Positions 1-54,698 of a DNA stretch of 64,000 nt are shown here, piece after piece (position 1 is the first letter of the stretch; every line of letters begins with the position of its first letter). A program made the position numbers and the translations under genes. This DNA is from Escherichia coli (GTDB taxonomy: Bacteria; Pseudomonadota; Gammaproteobacteria; Enterobacterales; Enterobacteriaceae): the NCBI RefSeq assembly GCF_003018255.1, contig NZ_CP027440.1; one strand, written 5' to 3'. The notes under the pieces were generated by a model, which did no database searches, had not been told where the DNA came from, and saw only the letters and a program-made list of their open reading frames with translations.

Positions 1-512
1 TGTTTAATCTCCTGGCATTCTTCAGGAATACCCCCTTTTATTTCCCTGCCATAAGCGCCTACTTTAAACACCACGCACAGGGCATCACGGGAGAGCGACG
101 GGGTCCACCAGGAGTCCATGTTAAACATGGAGGGGATTCTCATTACCCCCAGCTTTTCACAGAGCCAGACAAGGAAATCAGGACGCTTTCTTAACTCGCG
201 TTCAGCGGCTTCAATCATTGCGGCAATCGCCGGTCCTTCAGGGCATGACTCATCAGGTCTGGCAATAAAGCACGGTCCGTCCCCGATAAAAGCCACATCA
301 TCGCGCTTACGCCAGCCCGCAGGCAGAGCACCAGAAAAATAAAACTCACTGATTACGTCCATGGCAAACGGCTTTAAGCGCAATCCGGCAGCGCCTGTAT
401 TTTTCAGTAATGCCCGAAGAATACTGTTGCGTAGCGGTAAAACAGTCTGTTGATATTTGGTGAAATATTTATTTGTCTGCACACGGTCTAATTTGAAATA
501 AAAATATGCCAT
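1..512 (-). CDS. hypothetical phage early protein, N-terminal ~170 codons only (3' end beyond window)
   Basis: Hand translation: ATG at 512-510 preceded by AAGGAACAGG Shine-Dalgarno; frame stays open to position 1. Not in the ORF track because it has no stop in the window. No family recognised. Confidence 0.45.
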   Translation of the reverse strand, partial: MAYFYFKLDRVQTNKYFTKYQQTVLPLRNSILRALLKNTGAAGLRLKPFAMDVISEFYFSGALPAGWRKRDDVAFIGDGPCFIARPDESCPEGPAIAAMIEAAERELRKRPDFLVWLCEKLGVMRIPSMFNMDSWWTPSLSRDALCVVFKVGAYGREIKGGIPEECQEIK

Positions 513-609
513 ATATCCTGTTCCTTATTTTCAGTTTACAGGCGCAGGCAGTCCCCTGACGCGAGCGCCATACTTAAAACGATGTGATATTTAAAGATTT
601 AATGCGGTG

Positions 610-1140
610 TTATTTATTCAGTCCGGCGTCCTGTTCAAAAGGCTCGACATAAAAACTTTCAGCGCCTTTATTCACCTTAATACCGGCAATGCCTTTCACT
701 GCATCCGGCTCCGCCAGGACCGCTTCCTTGTTCACTTCCTCTTTCGTGCGGATGAATCGCTCAAGCCCCATACGGCGCAGCATTTCAATCACACCTTCCA
801 CATCACGGCTGACGCTGCATGATGGATTTCCCAGCCGCCATGATACTGTTCCGGTGGTCAGATTGGCTGTTTTGGTTTTGCCGCCGTTCGTCAGCTCATC
901 GCGGTTGGTTTTGCACCAGTCCTGAATCCCCTTAAAAAGCACTTTGATTTCTTTTTTAAGGTTTTCAATCTGCGGCGTATAACGGGCGGTGATTTCTGCC
1001 ACTTCATCATTCATCGCCGTTTCCAGCCGCAGCGCCTCTCGCTGAATATCGCCCAGGGTACGGATATCGCGGCTGACTTCTTCGCGGGTCTGCGGTGCAG
1101 CCTCGGCTGCGGCCTTTAATTTTGTAACACGTTTAGCCAT
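610..1140 (-). CDS. gam: Gam-like host-nuclease inhibitor (Mu Gam family)
   Basis: 176 aa ORF; sequence (LETAMNDEVAEIT...NRDELTNGGKTKTANL...FIRTKEEVNKEA) closely parallels Mu Gam as recalled; AAGGA RBS upstream of ATG at 1140. Confidence 0.85.
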   Translation of the reverse strand: MAKRVTKLKAAAEAAPQTREEVSRDIRTLGDIQREALRLETAMNDEVAEITARYTPQIENLKKEIKVLFKGIQDWCKTNRDELTNGGKTKTANLTTGTVSWRLGNPSCSVSRDVEGVIEMLRRMGLERFIRTKEEVNKEAVLAEPDAVKGIAGIKVNKGAESFYVEPFEQDAGLNK

Positions 1141-1151
1141 TTTGTTTTTCC

Positions 1152-1445
1152 TTATTGCAGTGTGCCTGATGCTTTATGCACGCGGTGGCGTTTAATGATG
1201 GCATCCGCCCCAAAAGCCTGTACAGATGCCTGAAATTCCGCTGAGAGAAACTGAATAATTTCAGGACTGTGATACTGGAGAATACTTGCATAAACGTCAC
1301 AGAGTGACGTCGGCCTGTTATTCGTATCACGTTCTGTTTTTACATCCACACCAATCTTTTCATGCACTTCAACACAGTCATTGCCTGCCGGTTTTTCGTC
1401 ATGCGAAACATGCTTAAATTCAAAAATAACGCGTACTTTGCTCAT
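1152..1445 (-). CDS. hypothetical small protein (paralog A of a tandem pair)
   Basis: ORF track 1152..1472; likely start is the internal ATG at 1445 (MSKVRVIFEFKHV...) with AGGGG RBS; shares N-terminal motif and a C-terminal segment with the adjacent ORF. Confidence 0.5.
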   Translation of the reverse strand: MSKVRVIFEFKHVSHDEKPAGNDCVEVHEKIGVDVKTERDTNNRPTSLCDVYASILQYHSPEIIQFLSAEFQASVQAFGADAIIKRHRVHKASGTLQ

Positions 1446-1449
1446 GGAA

Positions 1450-1722
1450 TTACCCCTGCTGATTAAATTCATTACCTTTAATAACCCCGGAACGCATGCT
1501 CATATCTTTCATGAGCGCACTGGCTTTCATTGCCACAAGTTCAGCAAAGTCTCTGCTTTCCGCGAGCATAACCACCCCAAAAATCATGGCGGGTCCATCA
1601 CCTTTCTGCTTTATCCCGGTTGAACGTATGTCCAGACTTACCCCCATGCGCACTGTTCCATCAGCGTTTTTATGGATAACGTGCTCCTTGTATTCGAAAA
1701 TAATGCGTACGACTTTACTCAT
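1450..1722 (-). CDS. hypothetical small protein (paralog B of a tandem pair)
   Basis: 90 aa ORF starting MSKVVRIIFEYKEHV; GAGGA RBS; stop overlaps start of the next gene (4 bp), consistent with translational coupling in the early operon. Confidence 0.5.
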   Translation of the reverse strand: MSKVVRIIFEYKEHVIHKNADGTVRMGVSLDIRSTGIKQKGDGPAMIFGVVMLAESRDFAELVAMKASALMKDMSMRSGVIKGNEFNQQG

Positions 1723-2000
1723 CCTCTGGTCCTCGTTCTGTTTGGATAACTGACCCGGCGTCTGACCTCACGGCAGAACCGAATCATGGCATTAAAGGCT
1801 TCTTCCTCCGTCACCGCTTCCGGTATCCCCGGAACCAGTAACTGCTCCTGTTCATCACGTCCATGACGCGCCATAACCTCAATCACATGCCGTACCGTGG
1901 CAGGCTTTCCGGCAACTATCGGCAATGCACCTTCCGGCAGGACGTAACCAAACTCAATAAGACCACTCGACCACGCCCATGCAATGAGATTTTTTTTCAC
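1719..2000 (-). CDS. hypothetical small early protein (GTG start)
   Basis: 93 aa ORF in the tightly packed minus-strand operon; first codon is GTG; no recognisable family. Confidence 0.4.
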   Translation of the reverse strand: MKKNLIAWAWSSGLIEFGYVLPEGALPIVAGKPATVRHVIEVMARHGRDEQEQLLVPGIPEAVTEEEAFNAMIRFCREVRRRVSYPNRTRTRG

Positions 2001-2001
2001 C

Positions 2002-2256
2002 TCACACCTCCCAGTAAACCGTGCAGCCGCTGATGCGGGTGGCCTTCACACGGCGGCGCAGGCCGTTGGTCTGTATGGTGATTTCAATTTCACCGGTTCC
2101 CTGCACGTTGCCTACCGGCGGCGTGGTTTTCAGTGCAAAACGTTGCGGATAGCGCTTACTGCGTTCCAGTACCGCACCGGCAAGTTCGGTCAGACGGCGC
2201 GCGCTGTTCAGGGAGTCGAATAAATTCATTTTGTTACCGCAGGATTGCATATTCAT
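2002..2256 (-). CDS. hypothetical small early protein
   Basis: ORF track 2002..2268; ATG at 2256 has a GAGGTG RBS so is the preferred start; no recognisable family. Confidence 0.4.
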   Translation of the reverse strand: MNMQSCGNKMNLFDSLNSARRLTELAGAVLERSKRYPQRFALKTTPPVGNVQGTGEIEITIQTNGLRRRVKATRISGCTVYWEV

Positions 2257-2268
2257 ATAACACCTCAT

Positions 2269-2490
2269 TTAGCTGACTTGTTTCGCACCAACAGAACGGC
2301 ATATTCCGCTGTAAACGTCTGTCGCACCTTCGCGATCAAGTCCGGCAGATATCACCATTCGTGTGCGGTCATTAAATTCAAAAAGAAAATCGCCACATTC
2401 TTTATTTTCGGCCAGTGAAATCACCTTCACGTTATCGAAATTAACCAGGTAAAAGCGTCCGTAAATATCAGGAATATTAAATACCGCCAT
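2269..2490 (-). CDS. small early protein in the position of Mu kil (73-75 aa)
   Basis: ORF 2269..2496 immediately after the B homolog with a GTGA/TGA start-stop overlap; ATG at 2490 has an AGGTG RBS. Kil assignment is by position and size only. Confidence 0.4.
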   Translation of the reverse strand: MAVFNIPDIYGRFYLVNFDNVKVISLAENKECGDFLFEFNDRTRMVISAGLDREGATDVYSGICRSVGAKQVS

Positions 2491-2492
2491 AA

Positions 2493-3425
2493 TCACACCT
2501 GTGAGAGTAATTCAGGGTTGGTATAAACCTCTTTAAAGGCCGCATTAATATGTTTTTCTGTCAGCGCCGCGCCTTCACCGCTGGCGGTGAGCCACGCCTG
2601 GTTAAGCGTATGTGTCAGAACGCGTAACGCTCCCGGCTTTTCAGCGATAGCCTGCATGACGGCCAGCTCGGCCTCACCACTGATCCCCCACGCCCTGGCA
2701 ATGGCCAGCACATCCGCCTTTTTGGCCTTGCGAAGTTGTTTTGTACGGGCAAGACGGCTGAACAGGCGCGATAAATCATCAAAGGCGCGGCGTCCACCTT
2801 TAAACAATCCGCGCGGGTTACCAATAAGCACCATCCCGATCCCCGTGGCGTCCTGAATTGCCCGGAGTTGCTCCAGACCGTCAATACCAAGATGATCCGC
2901 CTCATCCACAATCACCAGTCCACGCGTTCCCATCAGGCGACGGCGGATGGCGCGGGATAATGCCCCTTTGTTCGCGCGGGTGTAATCAATCCCCAGCGCA
3001 TCGGCCAGCTCCAGCAGACACTCCGTGACGCTGGAGTGCGCGGGTGACAGGGTGATCATCCAGGTGTTTGGTTGCTCCTGGCAGTAATTACGGGCAGTGG
3101 CCGTTTTACCCACACCCGGTACGCCCACAATAACGTTAATACAGCCCATCAGACGAACCGCCTGAAACAGTGCGCGCAGCTCCTGGACTGTCTGCGTTTC
3201 CACAAACTGCGGCGGTTCCGGCAGTGCGCTTTGTTTATTCCAGTTCTCATACCAGGAACGCAGGGAAGCAGCCACAGCAGCGTTATCGCCTTTATATTTT
3301 CCCTTACGGAAAGCCGATAATGTGCCGTCGGAAATTCCCGCCTCTCTGGCGATGGCATACTGCGTCAGTACGCCGCCATCAATAAGTTCATCAATGGTCT
3401 TGATTACATCGTTAATATCAGTCAT
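2493..3425 (-). CDS. MuB-like transposition ATPase
   Basis: 310 aa; Walker A GVPGVGKT, and extended similarity to Mu B as recalled (PEPPQFVETQTV, LVIVDEADHL, KPGALR). Confidence 0.9.
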   Translation of the reverse strand: MTDINDVIKTIDELIDGGVLTQYAIAREAGISDGTLSAFRKGKYKGDNAAVAASLRSWYENWNKQSALPEPPQFVETQTVQELRALFQAVRLMGCINVIVGVPGVGKTATARNYCQEQPNTWMITLSPAHSSVTECLLELADALGIDYTRANKGALSRAIRRRLMGTRGLVIVDEADHLGIDGLEQLRAIQDATGIGMVLIGNPRGLFKGGRRAFDDLSRLFSRLARTKQLRKAKKADVLAIARAWGISGEAELAVMQAIAEKPGALRVLTHTLNQAWLTASGEGAALTEKHINAAFKEVYTNPELLSQV

Positions 3426-3496
3426 ATTATTAACCTCTCATTTGATACCTTGTTTAATCAAATAACCTGAGTCGCCGCTCGGGTTATTTTTTTATT

Positions 3497-5587
3497 TCAG
3501 GCCAGCGGGTCATTTTCTTTTAATTTCGCTTCCAGCAACTGCAATCCCCGCTGGAAATTACGCTCGTATTCTTCATCAGGTTCATCGTCAGCGACCGGTT
3601 GCTGAACGGTCACCGTATTACCCACAGGGCGGTATATGTTTTCCAGCCAGGGCTCCTGCGGCTTGTGCTCCAGCACGTTGACAACCTCATCCTCGGCATC
3701 ACGGATTTTTTCCTCTGCGCGTTTACGCATGCCTTTAAGGCGTTGCTGCTGTTTGTAGTATTCCGCGCTAACCGGGAAGGCTTCGCGTTTATTACCGTCC
3801 CATACCGCCTCGCAAATCACGCTGCCATCCAGGCGACGTACGGTAATTCGTTCGGCATCATGAATGTCATAGCTGATAAGCACCTTACGACCATGCTCGT
3901 CACGCAGCTCGGGCGCGTAGTAAATATTATTCAGCCAGCGTATTTCACAGCGTCTTACAGGGCGTTCCACCATCGGCCGGAACATATCCCGCAGCTCAAC
4001 ATCGGACAGCCATTCAATTTCCGTGTCCTCTTCCGCCAGGCGTTTTTTTCTGAACTCCGCCGGGCTGTAATGCTTGCCGTTCGGCTTCACCGGTAATTCA
4101 TCGTGCGGCCGGTTGTTGTACCACTCAACACCGTCACGAATGGCATCAATCAGTTCAGACCAGGACGGTAAATCACGCATCGCTGACTGCTGCCGGGCGT
4201 TCAGCCGTTTGCCCTGTTGCAGGGCAGTAAATGCCGAGCGTAAATCGCGGTTGGTTTTGCGTAACGTCTCGCGATCTGCACCTTTCCCGAAATAGGTGCG
4301 GTATTTACGGGCTATGCGCATCGGTAATGTGCGGTTAAGCCGTTCGATAATGCCTCGTCCCTGCGGATTACCGGCAATCCCGGTCGGGTGATTAATCCCC
4401 AGTCGCGGCAGTATCCCCACAACCTCCTTATCCAGGATGTCGGCGGTTTCCCCGGAGCCGTTATCCGAGTAATACAGAAACGGTTTGCCGTGATGGCGAA
4501 TGCCGTGCTGTATGGCACCGGCTACGGCGAAAACATTTTCAGCCAGGTCAAGGCTCCAGCCCACCACAAAGCGCGTGCCACCGTCGATAACAAAGGTCAC
4601 TTCCGGTGCAAATGGCCGACCGTGAACCGGGTGTGCGCATTTCAGCTTCATGCCGTGACCGTCACCAATCCAGACATAATTCACCGGCATTCTGGACCAG
4701 TCGCGGCGCGTGAATCCCTCAAGCTGGCGGTATTCACTGCCGGTCACCCGGCCTTTTTGTTTCACCACTTCCGGCAGTTTCTTCATTGCGCGGCGAATGG
4801 TGTCATAAGACGGCATGATATCGAGCATATAAGGCTCATCAGCGTGCCGGTGCTGCCATTCAGCGACAAAATCCTCGTAAGCCTCGGTCATTGGTCGGCC
4901 GTTTGACTGGCGATACTGCGCCAGAAATTCGGGCAGCCAGTTAATATCTTCAGCTTTTATTTCCTGGCGCTTACCCGGTGCCAGTAAAAGCAGGCGTTCA
5001 GCGGCGTTCTGCGCCTTGTTAAAGGCCGCAATCCAGCGTTTCAGCGTTATTTCACTCAACGCACGGCTGTTTCCCTTTTTGGCGTTCGCCGTCTCAACCA
5101 TTGCCACAATGCGCTCGTCCAGTTGCGAACGTGCCAGGTTGTCAACGATAAACCGGATAGCTTTCGCACAGCTGAAACCGGGTTGTTGCGCGACTTTCAT
5201 CACTTCGCTGACGATCGCAATTCGTGCATCAGCCACCTGGCGCTGGTTTTCAGTCAGGGCATTAAGGCGTTCAACCATCAGTTGTGGTGATCCGCGATAT
5301 GCCTCCACCGCATCAACCACGGCAGGCGAGCGTCTGGCCTTTGTCACCACCGGAGCCGGTGATTCATCAGCTTTTTGCGTCATCAGTTGAAGGGCATAAC
5401 GTTCACGCAATACTTGTTGCGCGCCAGAAGGCAAACAATCGATATTAAATTCGATTGCTTTTGTCCCCTTACGTTTGCGTAACATGGCTGCATTTCCCGC
5501 AGCTGCTTTTGTGAGTCGATGGCGAATGTTATGTTCCATCATTGGTAAATCAGGAAGACCAACACATTCTTTTGCTGTTACCCACAT
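3497..5587 (-). CDS. MuA-like DDE transposase
   Basis: 696 aa; N-terminus MWVTAKECVGLPDLP parallels Mu A MELWVSPKECANLPGLP; candidate catalytic D-D-E residues in WIGDGHG, YYSDNGSGE and GIIERLN; GGGGGA RBS. Confidence 0.9.
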   Translation of the reverse strand: MWVTAKECVGLPDLPMMEHNIRHRLTKAAAGNAAMLRKRKGTKAIEFNIDCLPSGAQQVLRERYALQLMTQKADESPAPVVTKARRSPAVVDAVEAYRGSPQLMVERLNALTENQRQVADARIAIVSEVMKVAQQPGFSCAKAIRFIVDNLARSQLDERIVAMVETANAKKGNSRALSEITLKRWIAAFNKAQNAAERLLLLAPGKRQEIKAEDINWLPEFLAQYRQSNGRPMTEAYEDFVAEWQHRHADEPYMLDIMPSYDTIRRAMKKLPEVVKQKGRVTGSEYRQLEGFTRRDWSRMPVNYVWIGDGHGMKLKCAHPVHGRPFAPEVTFVIDGGTRFVVGWSLDLAENVFAVAGAIQHGIRHHGKPFLYYSDNGSGETADILDKEVVGILPRLGINHPTGIAGNPQGRGIIERLNRTLPMRIARKYRTYFGKGADRETLRKTNRDLRSAFTALQQGKRLNARQQSAMRDLPSWSELIDAIRDGVEWYNNRPHDELPVKPNGKHYSPAEFRKKRLAEEDTEIEWLSDVELRDMFRPMVERPVRRCEIRWLNNIYYAPELRDEHGRKVLISYDIHDAERITVRRLDGSVICEAVWDGNKREAFPVSAEYYKQQQRLKGMRKRAEEKIRDAEDEVVNVLEHKPQEPWLENIYRPVGNTVTVQQPVADDEPDEEYERNFQRGLQLLEAKLKENDPLA

Positions 5588-5597
5588 ACATCCCCCA

Positions 5598-5864
5598 TCA
5601 AGCCACTTCTCTGGCGTCCACCTGGTATCTGCTGGGCCAGATTACAGCAGGTTCAACCCCTATTTTTTCGGCGATGGCGGCTTCGTATTTACGGCACTGG
5701 CGGTAAAACACATTGCGCATTGATCCGCTTTTTAATCCTAACTCCCTTTCCAGTTCAGGGAGGTCTGTGCCTTTGTTTTCAAGGGCTGCATATACCGCTT
5801 TAGCAGACCAGTCACACCCCTCTCGAACAAACAAATTATTCGATGCTTGTCTGGATACCCTCAT
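5598..5864 (-). CDS. Ner-like DNA-binding regulator
   Basis: 88 aa; C-terminal VIWPSRYQ and overall alignment to Mu Ner as recalled; AGAGGA RBS; first gene of the early operon. Confidence 0.8.
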   Translation of the reverse strand: MRVSRQASNNLFVREGCDWSAKAVYAALENKGTDLPELERELGLKSGSMRNVFYRQCRKYEAAIAEKIGVEPAVIWPSRYQVDAREVA

Positions 5865-6020
5865 TGTGTGATCCTCTCATGTTTACCTGAACCGATAATC
5901 AAAACCGGTTATCGATTTAGGTAAATCATAATCGCAAAATAATTCGATATCAACGGTTTTTTGCGAGCATATCGAAATTAAATGCGATGTCGATAATTTC
6001 TTTGTTTTATAGGGGGTTAT
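5865..6020. promoter_or_regulatory. divergent immunity/early control region (operators and promoters between ner and repressor)
   Basis: 156 bp AT-rich intergenic region between divergent genes with at least five copies of a CGATA/TATCG half-site (e.g. CGATAA at 5893 and 5991, TTATCG at 5909) in direct and inverted orientation. Confidence 0.55.
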
Positions 6021-6632
6021 ATGGATAAGGCAGAAAAAACCGTATCCAGTGCGGAACGGTTTATTGATATGGAAGGAATAAACCGATTTTCAGAACGCTT
6101 AGCTATGGCTATGGGAAACATGACAAACGTCGAACTGGCGACCCTTTGTGGACTATCTGAAGCCACAGTAAGAAATTACAGGAAGGGGAAAAACTTCCCT
6201 CCTTTGGATAAACTGGCCTTAATAGCTAAAGCCTGTAATTGTTCACTCGAATGGTTGGCCACAGGCAAGAACGAAGATGAATGCGGAAAAATCGAAAACA
6301 ATTGCGATTCAGGTTCGGGTATTGATCAGGCGCTTAGCTCTCTAAGCCCCCAAGAGAAGCAATTAATCCTTACATTCATCAGGCGAGAAGGTACTAATAA
6401 CCTTGTCAGGCTGGCAGCAATGAATACATCTACAATCAGCCAGGATGCGGTAGAAAGCATCATTGATGCCTTGCCATTACGTCCCGTACTAAAAAATGCA
6501 ATAAAGATAGGAATGGCGGGAAGTGAAGAAACAGACAAAGAGATTTTGCGCGTTATTGAGAAGTACAACTCGAGCAATAACGCCACCCAGGAATCAGGGG
6601 CAGTGACAGTAAAGAAAAATGTTGTTGGTTAA
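6021..6632 (+). CDS. prophage repressor, cI/XRE-type helix-turn-helix
   Basis: 203 aa; N-terminal HTH (ELATLCGLSEATVRNYRKGKNFPPLDKLALIAKACNCSLEWL); transcribed divergently from ner toward the prophage end as in Mu c; AGGGGG RBS. Not similar to Mu c itself. Confidence 0.7.
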   Translation: MDKAEKTVSSAERFIDMEGINRFSERLAMAMGNMTNVELATLCGLSEATVRNYRKGKNFPPLDKLALIAKACNCSLEWLATGKNEDECGKIENNCDSGSGIDQALSSLSPQEKQLILTFIRREGTNNLVRLAAMNTSTISQDAVESIIDALPLRPVLKNAIKIGMAGSEETDKEILRVIEKYNSSNNATQESGAVTVKKNVVG

Positions 6633-6776
6633 GCGCCATCGCTATCATGAGGTGGTGCTGTAAATACATATAGAGATCATATGACTCATCCCAAGATAAT
6701 CACGCTATTGAATAGTAATTCATGATGATTATCATACTGATTATAGTTAGATCGATTATGTGAGCATTTTGGCAGT

Positions 6777-6810
6777 TTGAAGATGTTTTGAAGATGTTTT
6801 GAAGAAGATT
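6777..6810. repeat. tandem direct repeats (TTGAAGATGTT x2 plus a variant) in attL, candidate internal transposase-binding sites
   Basis: Seen directly: TTGAAGATGTT TTGAAGATGTT TTGAAGAAGATT about 100-135 bp from the inferred end, similar spacing to Mu L2/L3. Confidence 0.45.
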
Positions 6811-6890
6811 TTAAGGGTAAATTAGCAGTATCAAATGTGTCGCCGTTTTTTGATCTTTTGACTATTTGTTGAGCAGTCGGTATCAAAAAG

Positions 6891-6912
6891 AGTTTTCCGT
6901 CCGAAGTATACA
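6891..6912. repeat. terminal transposase-binding site and prophage left end
   Basis: Reverse complement TGTATACTTCGGACGGAAAACT resembles the Mu terminal site (TGTAT...ACGAAAA) and ends in the TG/CA dinucleotide. Confidence 0.5.
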
Positions 6913-6981
6913 TCACCTGTTTTATTTCAGCATCTTACAGGTGATTTCACCTCCTTTCACTAAAACCCTTGTCGGTATCAA

Positions 6982-7311
6982 ATGATTCACCTGGTTACAA
7001 ACGATGGATTGATTGATAACCTGCCACAAGGATGTTGCGTGGAAGTAGCCTGTCTGGTTGATGCTAATGGCATTCAGCCGACCAAAGTCGGTACGTTACC
7101 TTCGCATCTGGCCGCCCTGATGCAAACCAACATCAACGTACAGACGCTGCTGACCGAAGCCATTCTTACGGAAAATCGCGACCGTGTTTACCACGCTGCG
7201 ATGATGGACCCGCATACTGCCGCCGTGCTGGGCATTGATGAAATATATGCTCTTGTTGACGACCTGATTGCCGCCCACGGCGACTGGCTGCCAGGCTGGT
7301 TGCACCGTTAA
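6982..7311 (+). pseudogene. melA: melA 3' fragment (alpha-galactosidase, glycoside hydrolase family 4 C-terminus)
   Basis: 109 aa ORF with GH4 C-terminal motifs (NDGLIDNLP...VEVACLVD...MMDPHTAA); in-frame stop 7 codons upstream at 6961, so the 5' part of the gene is absent. Confidence 0.6.
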
Positions 7312-7958
7312 GGGGTAATCGCTTCCGGCGCTCTGGTGATTAAGCCAAAGCGCCGTAGCTGGCGGCAATGAAAGCGAGCGAGGAATATCACCGTCGTTAA
7401 TGCGCCAAGCAGCGCGCAGAACATATCGGATTGCGTGTCCCACTGGTCGCCCTGGGTGCCGAGAAAATCATCCGCTCCCTGACCCATTGCCAGCGCCGCC
7501 CACCACTCGATTAATTCATACATCGCGCTTATCGCCAGCGCCACGCAGCAGACCAGAAACGCCACCATCTTATGTCCGTGAACGTACATCCCGCGCACAA
7601 GGATCTCTCGTGCCACCAGTGCAGGCACCAGCCCCTGGAAAAAATGTCCCAGTTTGTCATACGGATTACGGCTCAACCCCAGCCATTCCTGCACCTCAAA
7701 ACCAACGGGGACTTTCGCGTAGGTGTATTGTCCGCCGACCATCAGGATGATGGCGTGAAAGAAAATGAGCGTATAGAGCAGCGGCGTTAACGGATAACGT
7801 TTAGCGGTGGCAAGCAGTAGCGGCACGACAATAATCACCGGTGTCACTTCCATCAGCCAGGTGAGTTTGTCATTGGCCGAAATGCCGGTATAAATCAGGA
7901 TTAACGTTAGCGCCAGTGCGCCGGTGTTAAGAATTAACGGCTTGAGTGTGCGGGTCAT
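7308..7958 (-). CDS. yjdF: inner membrane protein YjdF
   Basis: 216 aa hydrophobic ORF in the K-12 position next to fumB. Confidence 0.75.
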   Translation of the reverse strand: MTRTLKPLILNTGALALTLILIYTGISANDKLTWLMEVTPVIIVVPLLLATAKRYPLTPLLYTLIFFHAIILMVGGQYTYAKVPVGFEVQEWLGLSRNPYDKLGHFFQGLVPALVAREILVRGMYVHGHKMVAFLVCCVALAISAMYELIEWWAALAMGQGADDFLGTQGDQWDTQSDMFCALLGALTTVIFLARFHCRQLRRFGLITRAPEAITP

Positions 7959-14484: not shown

Positions 14485-14757
14485 ATGGAAATACGCGAAG
14501 GCCACAATAAATTTTACATTAATGACGAACAGGGCAAGCAAATCGCTGAAATTGTCTTTGTGCCGACCGGAGAGAATTTAGCGATTATCGAACATACCGA
14601 TGTCGATGAAAGCCTGAAAGGGCAAGGGATTGGTAAACAGCTGGTTGCGAAAGTCGTGGAAAAAATGCGTCGGGAAAAACGAAAAATTATCCCACTATGC
14701 CCATTTGCGAAACACGAATTTGATAAAACGCGGGAGTATGATGATATTCGCAGTTGA
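14485..14757 (+). CDS. yjdJ: GNAT-like small protein YjdJ
   Basis: 90 aa ORF; synteny. Confidence 0.7.
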
Positions 14758-14983: not shown

Positions 14984-15280
14984 ATGGAAGGTAAAAACAA
15001 GTTCAATACTTATGTTGTTTCTTTTGATTATCCATCATCTTATTCCTCAGTGTTCTTAAGGTTAAGATCATTGATGTATGATATGAGTTTCTCCTCTATC
15101 GTGGCTGATGAATATGGGATACCACGACAACTGAATGAAAACTCCTTCGCAATAACGACATCGTTAGCCGCAAGTGAAATCGAAGATTTAATCAGGCTTA
15201 AATGCTTAGACTTACCGGATATTGACTTTGACCTCAACATTATGACAGTTGATGACTATTTCCGTCAGTTTTACAAGTAG
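14984..15280 (+). CDS. ghoS: GhoS antitoxin (type V toxin-antitoxin, endoribonuclease)
   Basis: 98 aa ORF immediately upstream of the ghoT-like small ORF; K-12 synteny. Confidence 0.8.
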   Translation: MEGKNKFNTYVVSFDYPSSYSSVFLRLRSLMYDMSFSSIVADEYGIPRQLNENSFAITTSLAASEIEDLIRLKCLDLPDIDFDLNIMTVDDYFRQFYK

Positions 15281-15307
15281 CCAGGAAGGATAAGAAGAAC
15301 ATAAAAA

Positions 15308-15481
15308 ATGGCACTATTCTCTAAAATATTAATTTTTTATGTGATTGGTGTGAACATATCCTTTGTCATTATCTGGTTTATCTCACATGAGAAAACACAT
15401 ATTCGTTTACTTAGTGCATTTCTGGTCGGAATAACCTGGCCAATGAGTCTGCCTGTGGCATTACTTTTTTCTCTCTTTTAG
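15308..15481 (+). CDS. ghoT: GhoT small membrane toxin
   Basis: Hand-translated 57 aa hydrophobic peptide MALFSKILIFYVIGVNISFVIIWFISHEK...; below the ORF-track size cutoff. Confidence 0.75.
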   Translation: MALFSKILIFYVIGVNISFVIIWFISHEKTHIRLLSAFLVGITWPMSLPVALLFSLF

Positions 15482-15599
15482 GAGCTGTAGTTGAGTGGAC
15501 CCGCTGGTTATCTTGAAACGAAGCGTCTCTCCTCAAAACTGGATTTGCGGAATGACGAACGAAGCAGTCGCCTGACTGCTTCGTTCATTAAAGTGAAAT

Positions 15600-17117
15600 T
15601 TATTTCAGTGGGCGCATCGCCGGGAAGAGAATAACGTCGCGAATAGTATGACTGTTTGTAAACAGCATAATCATTCGGTCGATACCAATACCCAGACCAG
15701 CGGTTGGCGGCAGACCATATTCCAGCGCAGTTACGTAATCTTCGTCATAGAACATGGCTTCGTCGTCACCTGCAGCTTTAGCGTTAACCTGTTCCTGGAA
15801 ACGTTCAGCCTGATCTTCTGCGTCGTTTAATTCGCTAAAACCATTACCAATTTCACGACCACCGATGAAGAATTCAAAACGGTCGGTGATTTCCGGGTTA
15901 ACATCATTACGGCGCGCCAGCGGTGACACTTCTGCCGGATATTCCGTGATAAAGGTTGGCTGAATCAGATGTGCTTCTGCCACTTCATCAAAGATCTCCG
16001 TGACAATGCGTCCCAACCCCCAGCTTTTCTCTACCGTAATTCCGATAGATTCAGCTAATGCTTTAGCAGCATCAAAATTATCCAGATCCGCCATATCGGT
16101 TTCTGGACGATATTTTTTGATTGCTTCGCGCATGGTGAGTTTTTCAAACGGTTTGCCGAAATCAAACACATGCTCGCCATAAGTGACTTTAGTGGTACCC
16201 AGTACCTCTTGTGCCAGAGTGCGGAACAGTGATTCCGTCAGTTCAATCAAATCGTGGTAATCCGCATACGCCATGTAGAGTTCCATCATCGTGAACTCAG
16301 GATTATGACGAACAGAAATACCTTCATTACGGAAGTTACGGTTGATTTCGAATACCCGTTCAAAACCACCTACAACCAGACGTTTCAGATATAGCTCCGG
16401 CGCGATACGCAGGTACATATCTAAATCCAGAGCGTTATGATGGGTAATAAACGGGCGAGCAGATGCTCCACCTGGAATTACCTGCATCATCGGGGTTTCT
16501 ACTTCCATAAAGCCGCGAGCGACCATGAACTGACGGATAGCGGCCAGAATTTTTGAACGGACAACAAACGTTTGACGGGATTTATCGTTAGCGATGAGGT
16601 CCAGATAACGTTGACGATAACGGACTTCCTGATCCTGCAGACCATGGAATTTATCTGGTAAAGGACGTAGTGCTTTAGTCAGCAGGCGCAGCTCAGTACA
16701 GTGAATGGAAAGCTCACCCGTTTGCGTCTTAAACAGCGTACCGCGGGCACCGATAATGTCACCCAGATCCCATTTTTTAAACTGATCGTTATAAACACCT
16801 TCTGGCAGGCTATCTCTTGCAACGTACAGTTGAATACGGCCACCGACATCCTGCAACGTTACAAAGGAGGCTTTCCCCATAATACGACGGGTCATCATTC
16901 GGCCAGCAACCGAGACTTCAATGTTTAAGGATTCCAGTTCCTGGTTATCCTTCGCATCAAACTCTTCGTGCAACTGGTCAGAGGTATGGTCGCGGCGAAA
17001 ATCATTGGGAAACGCCACACCTTGCTGACGTAGTGCCGCCAGTTTTTCGCGGCGATTTCTCAGTTCATCGTTAAAATCAATAGCCTCATTGGCTCCCCGT
17101 GTTTCTCGTTCAGACAT
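15600..17117 (-). CDS. lysU: lysyl-tRNA synthetase, inducible
   Basis: ORF 15600..17144; start set at [12 protein letters not shown] matching the class II LysRS N-terminus; lies next to the cad operon as lysU does. Confidence 0.9.
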
Positions 17118-24951: not shown

Positions 24952-25027
24952 TGGTGCCCGGACTCGGAATCGAACCAAGGACACGGGGATTTTCAATCCC
25001 CTGCTCTACCGACTGAGCTATCCGGGC
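24952..25027 (-). tRNA. pheU: tRNA-Phe (GAA)
   Basis: 76 nt; reverse complement reads GCCCGGATAGCTCAGTCGGTAGAGCAGGGGATTGAAAATCCCC...GGGCACCA with a GAA anticodon. Confidence 0.95.
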
Positions 25028-35564: not shown

Positions 35565-35613
35565 TGTGATCCAGAGGCTGGATACTTCCAGCCTCGTAGT
35601 AAAACAGATGGGA

Positions 35614-36483: not shown

Positions 36484-36717
36484 GTAGGTTCTCCCTAACC
36501 ATTTCTCAATCAAATAATTAATTTTAATTTATAAGCCAGATAAATGGGCTTGGTAGTAATAGTTGTTAAAATAACATAAATAGCCGTGCTCACTCTATAT
36601 AAACAGAAAAGAAAGGTTAATTATTGGTGTTGGTTATATAAAAAGTAATAACAGCAATGTATATGAATAATTAAAGGTTATGCAACGTGCAAAGATTAAA
36701 CTTCCCTGTTTAATCAG

Positions 36718-37787: not shown

Positions 37788-38354
37788 ATGGCAACGTACT
37801 ATAGCAACGATTTTCGTGCTGGTCTTAAAATCATGTTAGACGGCGAACCTTACGCGGTTGAAGCGAGTGAATTCGTAAAACCGGGTAAAGGCCAGGCATT
37901 TGCTCGCGTTAAACTGCGTCGTCTGCTGACCGGTACTCGCGTAGAAAAAACCTTCAAATCTACTGATTCCGCTGAAGGTGCTGATGTTGTCGATATGAAC
38001 CTGACTTACCTGTACAACGACGGTGAGTTCTGGCACTTCATGAACAACGAAACTTTCGAGCAGCTGTCTGCTGATGCAAAAGCAATTGGCGACAACGCCA
38101 AATGGTTGCTGGATCAGGCAGAGTGTATCGTAACTCTGTGGAATGGTCAGCCGATCTCCGTTACTCCGCCGAACTTCGTTGAGCTGGAAATCGTTGATAC
38201 CGATCCGGGCCTGAAAGGTGATACCGCAGGTACTGGCGGCAAACCAGCTACCCTGTCTACTGGCGCTGTGGTTAAAGTTCCGCTGTTCGTACAGATCGGC
38301 GAAGTCATCAAAGTGGATACCCGCTCTGGTGAATACGTCTCTCGCGTGAAGTAA
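37788..38354 (+). CDS. efp: elongation factor P
   Basis: 188 aa [22 protein letters not shown]... with the modified-lysine loop KPGKGQA. Confidence 0.97.
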
Positions 38355-38405: not shown

Positions 38406-38531
38406 ATGATGAAACGCCTTATCGTTCTTGTTTTGCTTGCCAGTGCGCTGCTCACGGGCTGTAACACCGCTCGCGGTTTTGGTGAAGACATTAAACATCT
38501 CGGCAACTCCATCTCCCGCGCTGCCAGCTAA
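38406..38531 (+). CDS. ecnA: entericidin A lipoprotein (antidote)
   Basis: Hand-translated 41 aa MMKRLIVLVLLASALLTGCNTARGFGEDIKHLGNSISRAAS with lipobox. Confidence 0.8.
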   Translation: MMKRLIVLVLLASALLTGCNTARGFGEDIKHLGNSISRAAS

Positions 38532-38641
38532 TTTTTCTTCTCCTCCGAAAAATCATCAGATTTCCATCATTTTTGGCGATGTTGTCTATTATTAATTTGC
38601 TATAGGCAAACATAAATAACATTACCTAAAAGGAAGACGTT

Positions 38642-38788
38642 ATGGTGAAGAAGACAATTGCAGCGATCTTTTCTGTTCTGGTGCTTTCAACAGTATTAAC
38701 TGCCTGCAACACCACGCGTGGCGTTGGTGAAGACATTTCTGATGGCGGTAACGCGATTTCTGGCGCAGCAACGAAAGCGCAGCAGTAA
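38642..38788 (+). CDS. ecnB: entericidin B lipoprotein (bacteriolytic toxin)
   Basis: Hand-translated 48 aa [48 protein letters not shown]. Confidence 0.8.
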
Positions 38789-38794
38789 GCAATA

Positions 38795-38830
38795 ACGGTA
38801 CGACAGCTGTGTCGTGCCGTTTGTTTTTTT
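38795..38830 (+). terminator. rho-independent terminator after ecnB
   Basis: Imperfect hairpin GGTACGACA GCTG TGTCGTGCC followed by GTTTGTTTTTTTT. Confidence 0.55.
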
Positions 38831-38963
38831 TGCGATAGTCACAAAGGTAATAGTTGAAATTCCCCTGCCACCTGGCAAAATATCCGTTCAACCATCAGCT
38901 TTGCAGGACGACCTGCAAACGCCTCTTTTCACCGGGGACGGCCCCAATTCTCCGGAGCCTGAT

Positions 38964-39281
38964 ATGTCCTGGATTATCTTAGTTATTGCTGGTCTGCTGG
39001 AAGTGGTATGGGCCGTTGGCCTGAAATATACCCACGGCTTTAGTCGTTTGACGCCAAGTGTTATTACTGTGACGGCGATGATTGTCAGTATGGCGCTACT
39101 TGCCTGGGCGATGAAATCGTTACCAGTAGGGACGGCTTATGCCGTGTGGACGGGTATTGGCGCAGTCGGCGCGGCCATCACCGGCATTGTGCTGCTCGGC
39201 GAGTCCGCTAACCCGATGCGCCTGGCGAGTCTGGCGTTAATCGTATTGGGGATTATTGGTCTGAAACTCAGCACTCACTAA
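38964..39281 (+). CDS. gdx: SMR-family guanidinium exporter Gdx (SugE)
   Basis: 105 aa [26 protein letters not shown]... within ORF 38814..39281. Confidence 0.9.
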
Positions 39282-54541: not shown

Positions 54542-54698
54542 AAATTTGAAAAGTGCTGCAAAGCACAGACCACCCAATCGCAGTATTTCGAATTGCGACA
54601 AGGCGGCAACTGAACGAATCCTTGGGAACTTACAAAAGTAAGTGACTAAGGTGAGTGAAGGCAGCCAAGGCAGTAGCGGTTCGAAAGACGAAGATTAA

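Follow-up and report, generated by a model that had tools for sequence, protein, structure and literature searches.

The ghoST and ecnAB small-protein modules in a 64-kb stretch of Escherichia coli DNA and their K-12 counterparts

GhoS and GhoT of Escherichia coli are an experimentally characterised type V toxin-antitoxin pair. To our knowledge, the literature on this pair comes essentially from a single research group. GhoT is a membrane-damaging toxin that yields 'ghost' cells (PMC4344625, PMC4010927, PMC4803016), and the antitoxin GhoS works by cleavage of the ghoT mRNA with no binding to the toxin protein, the mode defined as type V (PMC4010927, PMC4344625). The mRNA interferase MqsR is specific for GCU; it breaks down the ghoS portion of the transcript and leaves the ghoT portion, resulting in enrichment of the toxin mRNA under stress, and in agreement with this mode of control the published pattern is three GCU sites in ghoS and zero in ghoT (PMC4344625, PMC4803016). 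A homologue of GhoT, the orphan toxin OrtT (YdcX) of E. coli, is 63% identical to GhoT; it has no antitoxin of its own, GhoS does not neutralise it, and two GCU sites are present in its mRNA (PMC4344625).

The ecnA and ecnB genes, for entericidins A and B, carry a toxin/antidote label as well. In the study by Bishop et al. (1998), as described in PMC7296081, overproduction of EcnB resulted in bacteriolysis, and this was suppressed by ecnA in cis. The ecnB mRNA is repressed by the small RNA MicA, and belongs to an envelope-stress regulon shared with ompA and tsx (PMC3551931). The toxin/antidote label of ecnAB is the standard annotation, based mainly on the single 1998 study; it has been questioned and is not settled.

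The DNA analysed here, referred to as the window, is a stretch of 64,000 nucleotides from E. coli contig NZ_CP027440.1. A preliminary description of this DNA had pointed to ghoST and ecnAB as small toxin/antidote pairs in its core region. After comparison with K-12 and with the complete E. coli genomes, the ghoS/ghoT and ecnA/ecnB genes of the window are almost certainly the known chromosomal small-protein modules of E. coli at their usual core-genome sites. Both modules are already known; they are ordinary features of the core genome, and nothing about them is new.

Genomic position and spread among E. coli

E. coli K-12 MG1655 (NC_000913.3) was used as the K-12 reference, and collinearity was determined by BLAST of the whole window against K-12 positions 4335000-4410000. 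From position 7000 to 64000 the window is collinear with K-12 at 97-98.5% identity, indicating that both ghoST and ecnAB are located in core DNA, as the preliminary description had stated. The order of genes is that of K-12 on both sides of each module, dcuS(-)-yjdI-yjdJ-ghoS-ghoT-lysU(-) for ghoST and efp-ecnA-ecnB-gdx-blc(-) for ecnAB. All the intergenic spacers are of K-12 length with 0-3 substitutions each, and the 51-nt spacer between efp and ecnA is identical. Across the four genes a total of 13 nucleotide differences from K-12 were detected, 11 being synonymous. The alignment with the K-12 proteins, which had been proposed as a check of the four identities, gave 100% identity for GhoT and EcnB, 97/98 residues for GhoS (N35S as the single change) and 40/41 for EcnA (T14A as the single change). 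The four open reading frames are on the plus strand at precisely the positions that the preliminary description had given. The coordinates of the modules and of the other listed features are given in Table 1.

Table 1. Coordinates of ghoST, ecnAB and prophage features within the window
Feature	Position	Strand	Description
Gam-like ORF, Mu-like prophage	610-1140	-	
MuB-like AAA ATPase, Mu-like prophage	2493-3425	-	
Mu-type transposase, Mu-like prophage	3497-5587	-	
ner-like ORF, Mu-like prophage	5598-5864	-	
Repressor-like ORF, Mu-like prophage	6021-6632	+	
ghoS	14984-15280	+	98 aa; type V antitoxin, sequence-specific endoribonuclease (activity by analogy with K-12)
ghoS-ghoT spacer	15281-15307	+	27 nt; purine-rich ribosome-binding region for ghoT; identical to K-12
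ghoT	15308-15481	+	57 aa; small membrane-damaging toxin (from the K-12 literature), two hydrophobic segments
Hairpin	15557-15586	no strand	Perfect 13-bp stem, 4-nt loop; between convergent ghoT and lysU
ecnA	38406-38531	+	Entericidin A; small lipoprotein with a precursor of 41 aa and a mature form of 23 aa; antidote by annotation
ecnA-ecnB spacer	38532-38641	+	110 nt; AGGAAG Shine-Dalgarno sequence; 2 differences from K-12
ecnB	38642-38788	+	Entericidin B; small lipoprotein with a precursor of 48 aa and a mature form of 27 aa; bacteriolytic toxin by annotation
Terminator-like hairpin	38794-38831	+	Directly after ecnB; 12-bp stem with 6 G-C pairs, then TGTTTTTTTT

Both modules are widespread. 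The 1-kb ghoST stretch was detected in 5355 of the 5426 complete E. coli genomes, with the RefSeq names ghoS/ghoT, and at least 15 complete genomes, of strains from diverse hosts, match it at 100% identity. The ecnAB stretch was detected in 5425 of the 5426 genomes, with the RefSeq names ecnA/ecnB. For the 701-nt ecnAB stretch a perfect match was found in none of these 5426 genomes; the best match differs by two substitutions and one T within a T-run and encodes the same EcnA and EcnB proteins as the window. The lack of a perfect match is trivial, a matter of ordinary strain variation. The identity with K-12, the synteny and the RefSeq names given to identical DNA are all in agreement with the preliminary description of these loci as known chromosomal modules.

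The only large accessory DNA within the window is one end of a Mu-like prophage, at 1-6999 (junction 6999/7000). The prophage end (...TTACA at position 6999) lies inside melA, and the last 312 nt of melA follow at 7000-7311. At other locations, copies with 99.9-100% identity are present in 34 complete E. coli genomes, O157:H7 and O111 among them. The insertion site in melA was not seen among the eight matches listed, all of which stop at the junction or within a few bases of it on the melA side. Next to the melA remnant, melB is absent (7311-7332), and only about 20 nt separate the stop codon of melA from the 3' end of yjdF. The deletion removes K-12 positions 4343267-4344931, and the same junction was detected in 1264 of the 5426 complete E. 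coli genomes, indicating a common lineage polymorphism.

Smaller differences from K-12 were found elsewhere. Two small breaks of collinearity flank yjeJ (35575-35581 and 36696-36714). K-12 sequence of about 146 nt at one and 141 nt at the other is missing or has been replaced, and the DNA enclosed by the breaks is the most divergent segment of the window (96.9% identity to K-12). The window has three tRNA-Gly(GCC) genes, and the first is separated from the second by 233 nt here versus 112 nt in K-12, with about 118 nt of extra sequence at 54578-54695; this extra sequence may resemble an ERIC/IRU intergenic repeat. Genomic islands often integrate at the tRNA-Phe gene pheU. At pheU of the window (24952-25027, minus strand) no island is present, and the region is collinear with K-12.

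Anatomy of ghoST

The GhoS protein matched Pfam PF11080 (E=2.4e-40), with 88 of the 94 profile positions covered, and it is identical at 97 of 98 residues to PDB 2LLZ, the solved structure of E. coli K-12 YjdK (now GhoS), from which it differs by N35S alone. GhoT matched Pfam PF10753, Toxin_GhoT_OrtT (E=8.9e-26); the protein is identical to K-12 b4559, and the gene carries one synonymous nucleotide difference. No NCBIfam model matched GhoS or GhoT. With a GRAVY value of 1.50 and hydrophobic stretches around residues 1-27 and 34-57, GhoT is the hydrophobic 57-aa peptide that the preliminary description had recognised beyond ghoS, and the gene starts 27 nt past the ghoS stop codon. As that description had also noted, the peptide genes fall under the cut-off applied to the open reading frames, ghoT, ecnA and ecnB all being shorter than 60 codons.

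Because MqsR recognises GCU, the distribution of GCT triplets was compared between the two genes. Three are present in ghoS, at 15104, 15196 and 15204, and none in ghoT, an exact match to the published MqsR-GhoST pattern. The absence of GCT from ghoT carries little weight by itself, as the triplet is also missing from about 11% of the versions of ghoT obtained by mononucleotide shuffling. The same property separates the gene from ortT. OrtT shares PF10753 and the length of 57 aa with GhoT, but the peptide encoded here is 100% identical to GhoT, its gene lies 3' of ghoS and it contains no GCU, and on these three grounds OrtT was ruled out as its identity.

For expression of ghoS, the Shine-Dalgarno sequence AGGAG is located 8 nt upstream of the ATG. 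Directly upstream of ghoS the consensus scan gave no convincing sigma-70 promoter; the only plus-strand match near ghoS is at 14720-14748, inside the 3' end of yjdJ, with 9/12 matches. The promoter scan is uninformative upstream of both ghoS and ecnB, because these spacers are nearly identical to K-12. Within the ghoS-ghoT spacer neither a promoter-like nor a terminator-like site was detected by consensus scan, and the layout and spacer of the two genes would fit their co-transcription on a single transcript. Beyond ghoT, the hairpin between the convergent genes was detected by RNA folding of 15470-15600 (z=-3.0 versus shuffles). Its stem is identical in K-12 and is located 14 nt beyond the lysU stop codon. 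Since a U-run follows on neither strand, it was not called by the consensus terminator scan; we infer that it is probably a 3'-end or terminator structure shared by ghoT and lysU.

By analogy with K-12, ghoST would operate as an operon of two genes in which the antitoxin gene precedes the toxin gene. GhoS, a stable endoribonuclease, would cleave the ghoT mRNA instead of binding the GhoT protein, and GhoT, when made, would damage the inner membrane and lower ATP. Under stress, the MqsR toxin would cut the transcript at 5'-GCU, so that the ghoS part with its three sites is destroyed, while the GCU-free ghoT part would be spared and GhoT produced. The mqsRA genes lie outside the 64-kb window, and in K-12 they are located far from the ghoST locus.

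Anatomy of ecnAB

The preliminary description had placed two short lipoprotein genes at 38406-38788 between efp and gdx, and both the positions of the open reading frames and the NCBIfam assignments agree with this. EcnA matched NF007319, 'lipoprotein antitoxin entericidin A', with 112.7 bits (cut-off 86), and EcnB matched NF007487, 'lipoprotein toxin entericidin B', with 121.9 bits (cut-off 94). Both matched Pfam PF08085, Entericidin (26.5 bits for EcnA and 30.2 bits for EcnB; cut-off 23.3), and EcnA also matched the LPAM_1 lipid-attachment motif of Pfam. The two proteins are 52% identical to each other, indicating that ecnA and ecnB are tandem paralogues. Upstream of the pair lies efp (37788-38354, 188 aa) and downstream gdx/sugE (38964-39281, 105 aa), the gene for an SMR transporter.

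Both precursors start with a basic N-terminus, after which come a hydrophobic segment and then the lipobox; this is LTGC in EcnA (Cys19) and LTAC in EcnB (Cys22). According to the Lol sorting rule, a lipoprotein stays in the inner membrane if position +2 after the lipid-modified cysteine is Asp. In both EcnA and EcnB the residue at +2 is Asn, which predicts their release to the outer membrane. If a helix is assumed, the mature proteins would be short amphipathic peptides: the helical hydrophobic moment is 0.587 for mature EcnA (shuffle mean 0.204) and 0.413 for mature EcnB (shuffle mean 0.154), and for each protein its value was reached by 0 of 2000 shuffles.

The ecnA-ecnB spacer is expected to hold the promoter of ecnB itself. 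A simple scan of this spacer gave no sigma-70 consensus promoter, and no significant RNA structure was found within it (z=-0.6). Following ecnB, the hairpin and T-run at 38794-38831 have the appearance of a strong intrinsic terminator. A second 'terminator-like' site called by the consensus scan, at 38900-38919, was rejected because it corresponds to hairpin 1 of the guanidine-II (mini-ykkC) riboswitch upstream of gdx/sugE. This riboswitch, at 38900-38946 on the plus strand, scored 50.4 bits (gathering score 32) and consists of two hairpins with the loops ACGA and ACGG.

In sum, ecnAB is a tandem of paralogous small lipoprotein genes, and in each product a signal peptide and the lipobox cysteine precede a short mature peptide of amphipathic character. 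EcnB is reported to lyse bacteria when overproduced, an effect that EcnA is reported to counteract, and ecnB would be repressed by MicA in this strain too. More generally, the biochemical activities of all four products are those expected from the literature on essentially identical K-12 genes.

Alternative readings and comparison with the K-12 modules

For genes of this size, it must be considered whether the reading frames are genes at all. Within 2.5 kb around ghoST there are 46 open reading frames of at least 20 aa, and the peptides of ghoT, ecnA and ecnB are each below 60 aa. Since short reading frames are common by chance, gene status is based on homology and not on their length. The proposal that the short reading frames are chance ones is ruled out by the family matches (E values of 1e-26 to 1e-40, or scores above the curated cut-offs), by a difference of only 0-1 residue from experimentally studied K-12 genes and by the mostly synonymous pattern of substitutions. 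The Shine-Dalgarno sequence at each gene, the lipoboxes of the ecn genes and the retention of this DNA in nearly all E. coli genomes argue in the same direction, and the chance of such an origin is negligible. Genes below 60 aa that are missed by a cut-off on reading frames can thus be reliably recovered by homology.

Given that the four are genes, the strain alleles GhoS N35S and EcnA T14A could in principle alter the activity, specificity or lipoprotein processing of the modules in this strain. Mutagenesis of GhoS gave the toxin ArT (L25I and M31L) with broader cleavage (PMC4010927), and residue 35 is near M31 in the sequence. The recurrent residues of the mutagenesis screen, however, were D15, M31, E43 and N85, not N35 (PMC4010927), and N35S is present in at least 15 complete genomes of diverse hosts with a ghoST stretch 100% identical to this one, indicating a standing natural allele; on both grounds there is no reason to suspect an altered function of GhoS. 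The ecnA allele is rare: ecnA diverges from K-12 by 4.8%, compared with about 2% in the neighbouring DNA, and among the 5426 complete E. coli genomes the exact allele was detected in only 2, which are from human isolates collected in Japan. Against an effect of this allele, T14A is a conservative Thr to Ala change in the hydrophobic core of the signal peptide, and the LTGC lipobox is intact. Apart from N35S and T14A, the four genes have synonymous differences only. An allele effect is the sole strain-specific possibility within the window; there is no evidence for altered activity, and we consider it very improbable.

The other question concerns not this strain but the entericidin family. The ecnA and ecnB products could be paralogous small lipoproteins under envelope-stress control, located in the outer membrane, at the cell surface or in vesicles, and not a toxin and its antidote, the lysis after overproduction being an artefact or side effect. 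The Keio collection includes a viable ecnA knockout, which would not be expected if EcnA were a true antidote; the EcnB homologue of Agrobacterium is a surface-exposed, vesicle-associated lipoprotein that caused no lysis or pore formation, and EcnB homologues occur in vesicles of several species (PMC7296081). The membership of ecnB in the MicA envelope-stress regulon (PMC3551931), the Asn at +2 predicting an outer-membrane location for both proteins, and the 52% paralogy of EcnA and EcnB, unlike typical toxin-antitoxin pairs, point the same way. Against it stand the EcnB bacteriolysis and its suppression by ecnA in the 1998 study, as far as this is described in PMC7296081, and the secreted EcnB homologue of Enterobacter C6-6, cited in the same paper as bacteriolytic toward Flavobacterium; the toxin and antitoxin names are also kept by NCBIfam and EcoGene-style annotation. 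We regard such a purely envelope-related role as possible but rather unlikely. The answer applies to the whole family, and the sequence of the window adds nothing to it.

The term 'toxin/antidote pairs' used in the preliminary description is accordingly better supported for GhoS/GhoT than for ecnAB, where the experimental basis of the label is thin and has been questioned (PMC7296081). The identification of both loci as the known E. coli modules does not depend on this label. All features of membership that can be read from sequence were found in ghoST and likewise in ecnAB: the identities of the genes, their anatomy, the GCU asymmetry, the lipoboxes and the amphipathicity were observed in this DNA, and no evidence contrary to the identity assigned to any of the four was detected. 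None of the four proteins matched a PADLOC defence model. In a search for novel systems in the window, the ghoST and ecnAB loci can be set aside as explained.

In comparison with K-12 ghoST (GhoS/GhoT, formerly YjdK/YjdO; b4128/b4559), the locus described here has the same genes in the same order, the same 27-nt spacer, the same flanks and the same distribution of GCU, and differs by one conservative change in GhoS (N35S) and 5 synonymous changes across both genes. In comparison with K-12 ecnAB (b4410/b4411), the pair is located at the same position between efp and gdx/sugE with spacers of equal length (51, 110 and 175 nt), it shares with K-12 both lipoboxes and the terminator that follows ecnB, and EcnB is 100% identical to b4411, while ecnA differs by T14A in the signal peptide and 5 synonymous changes.
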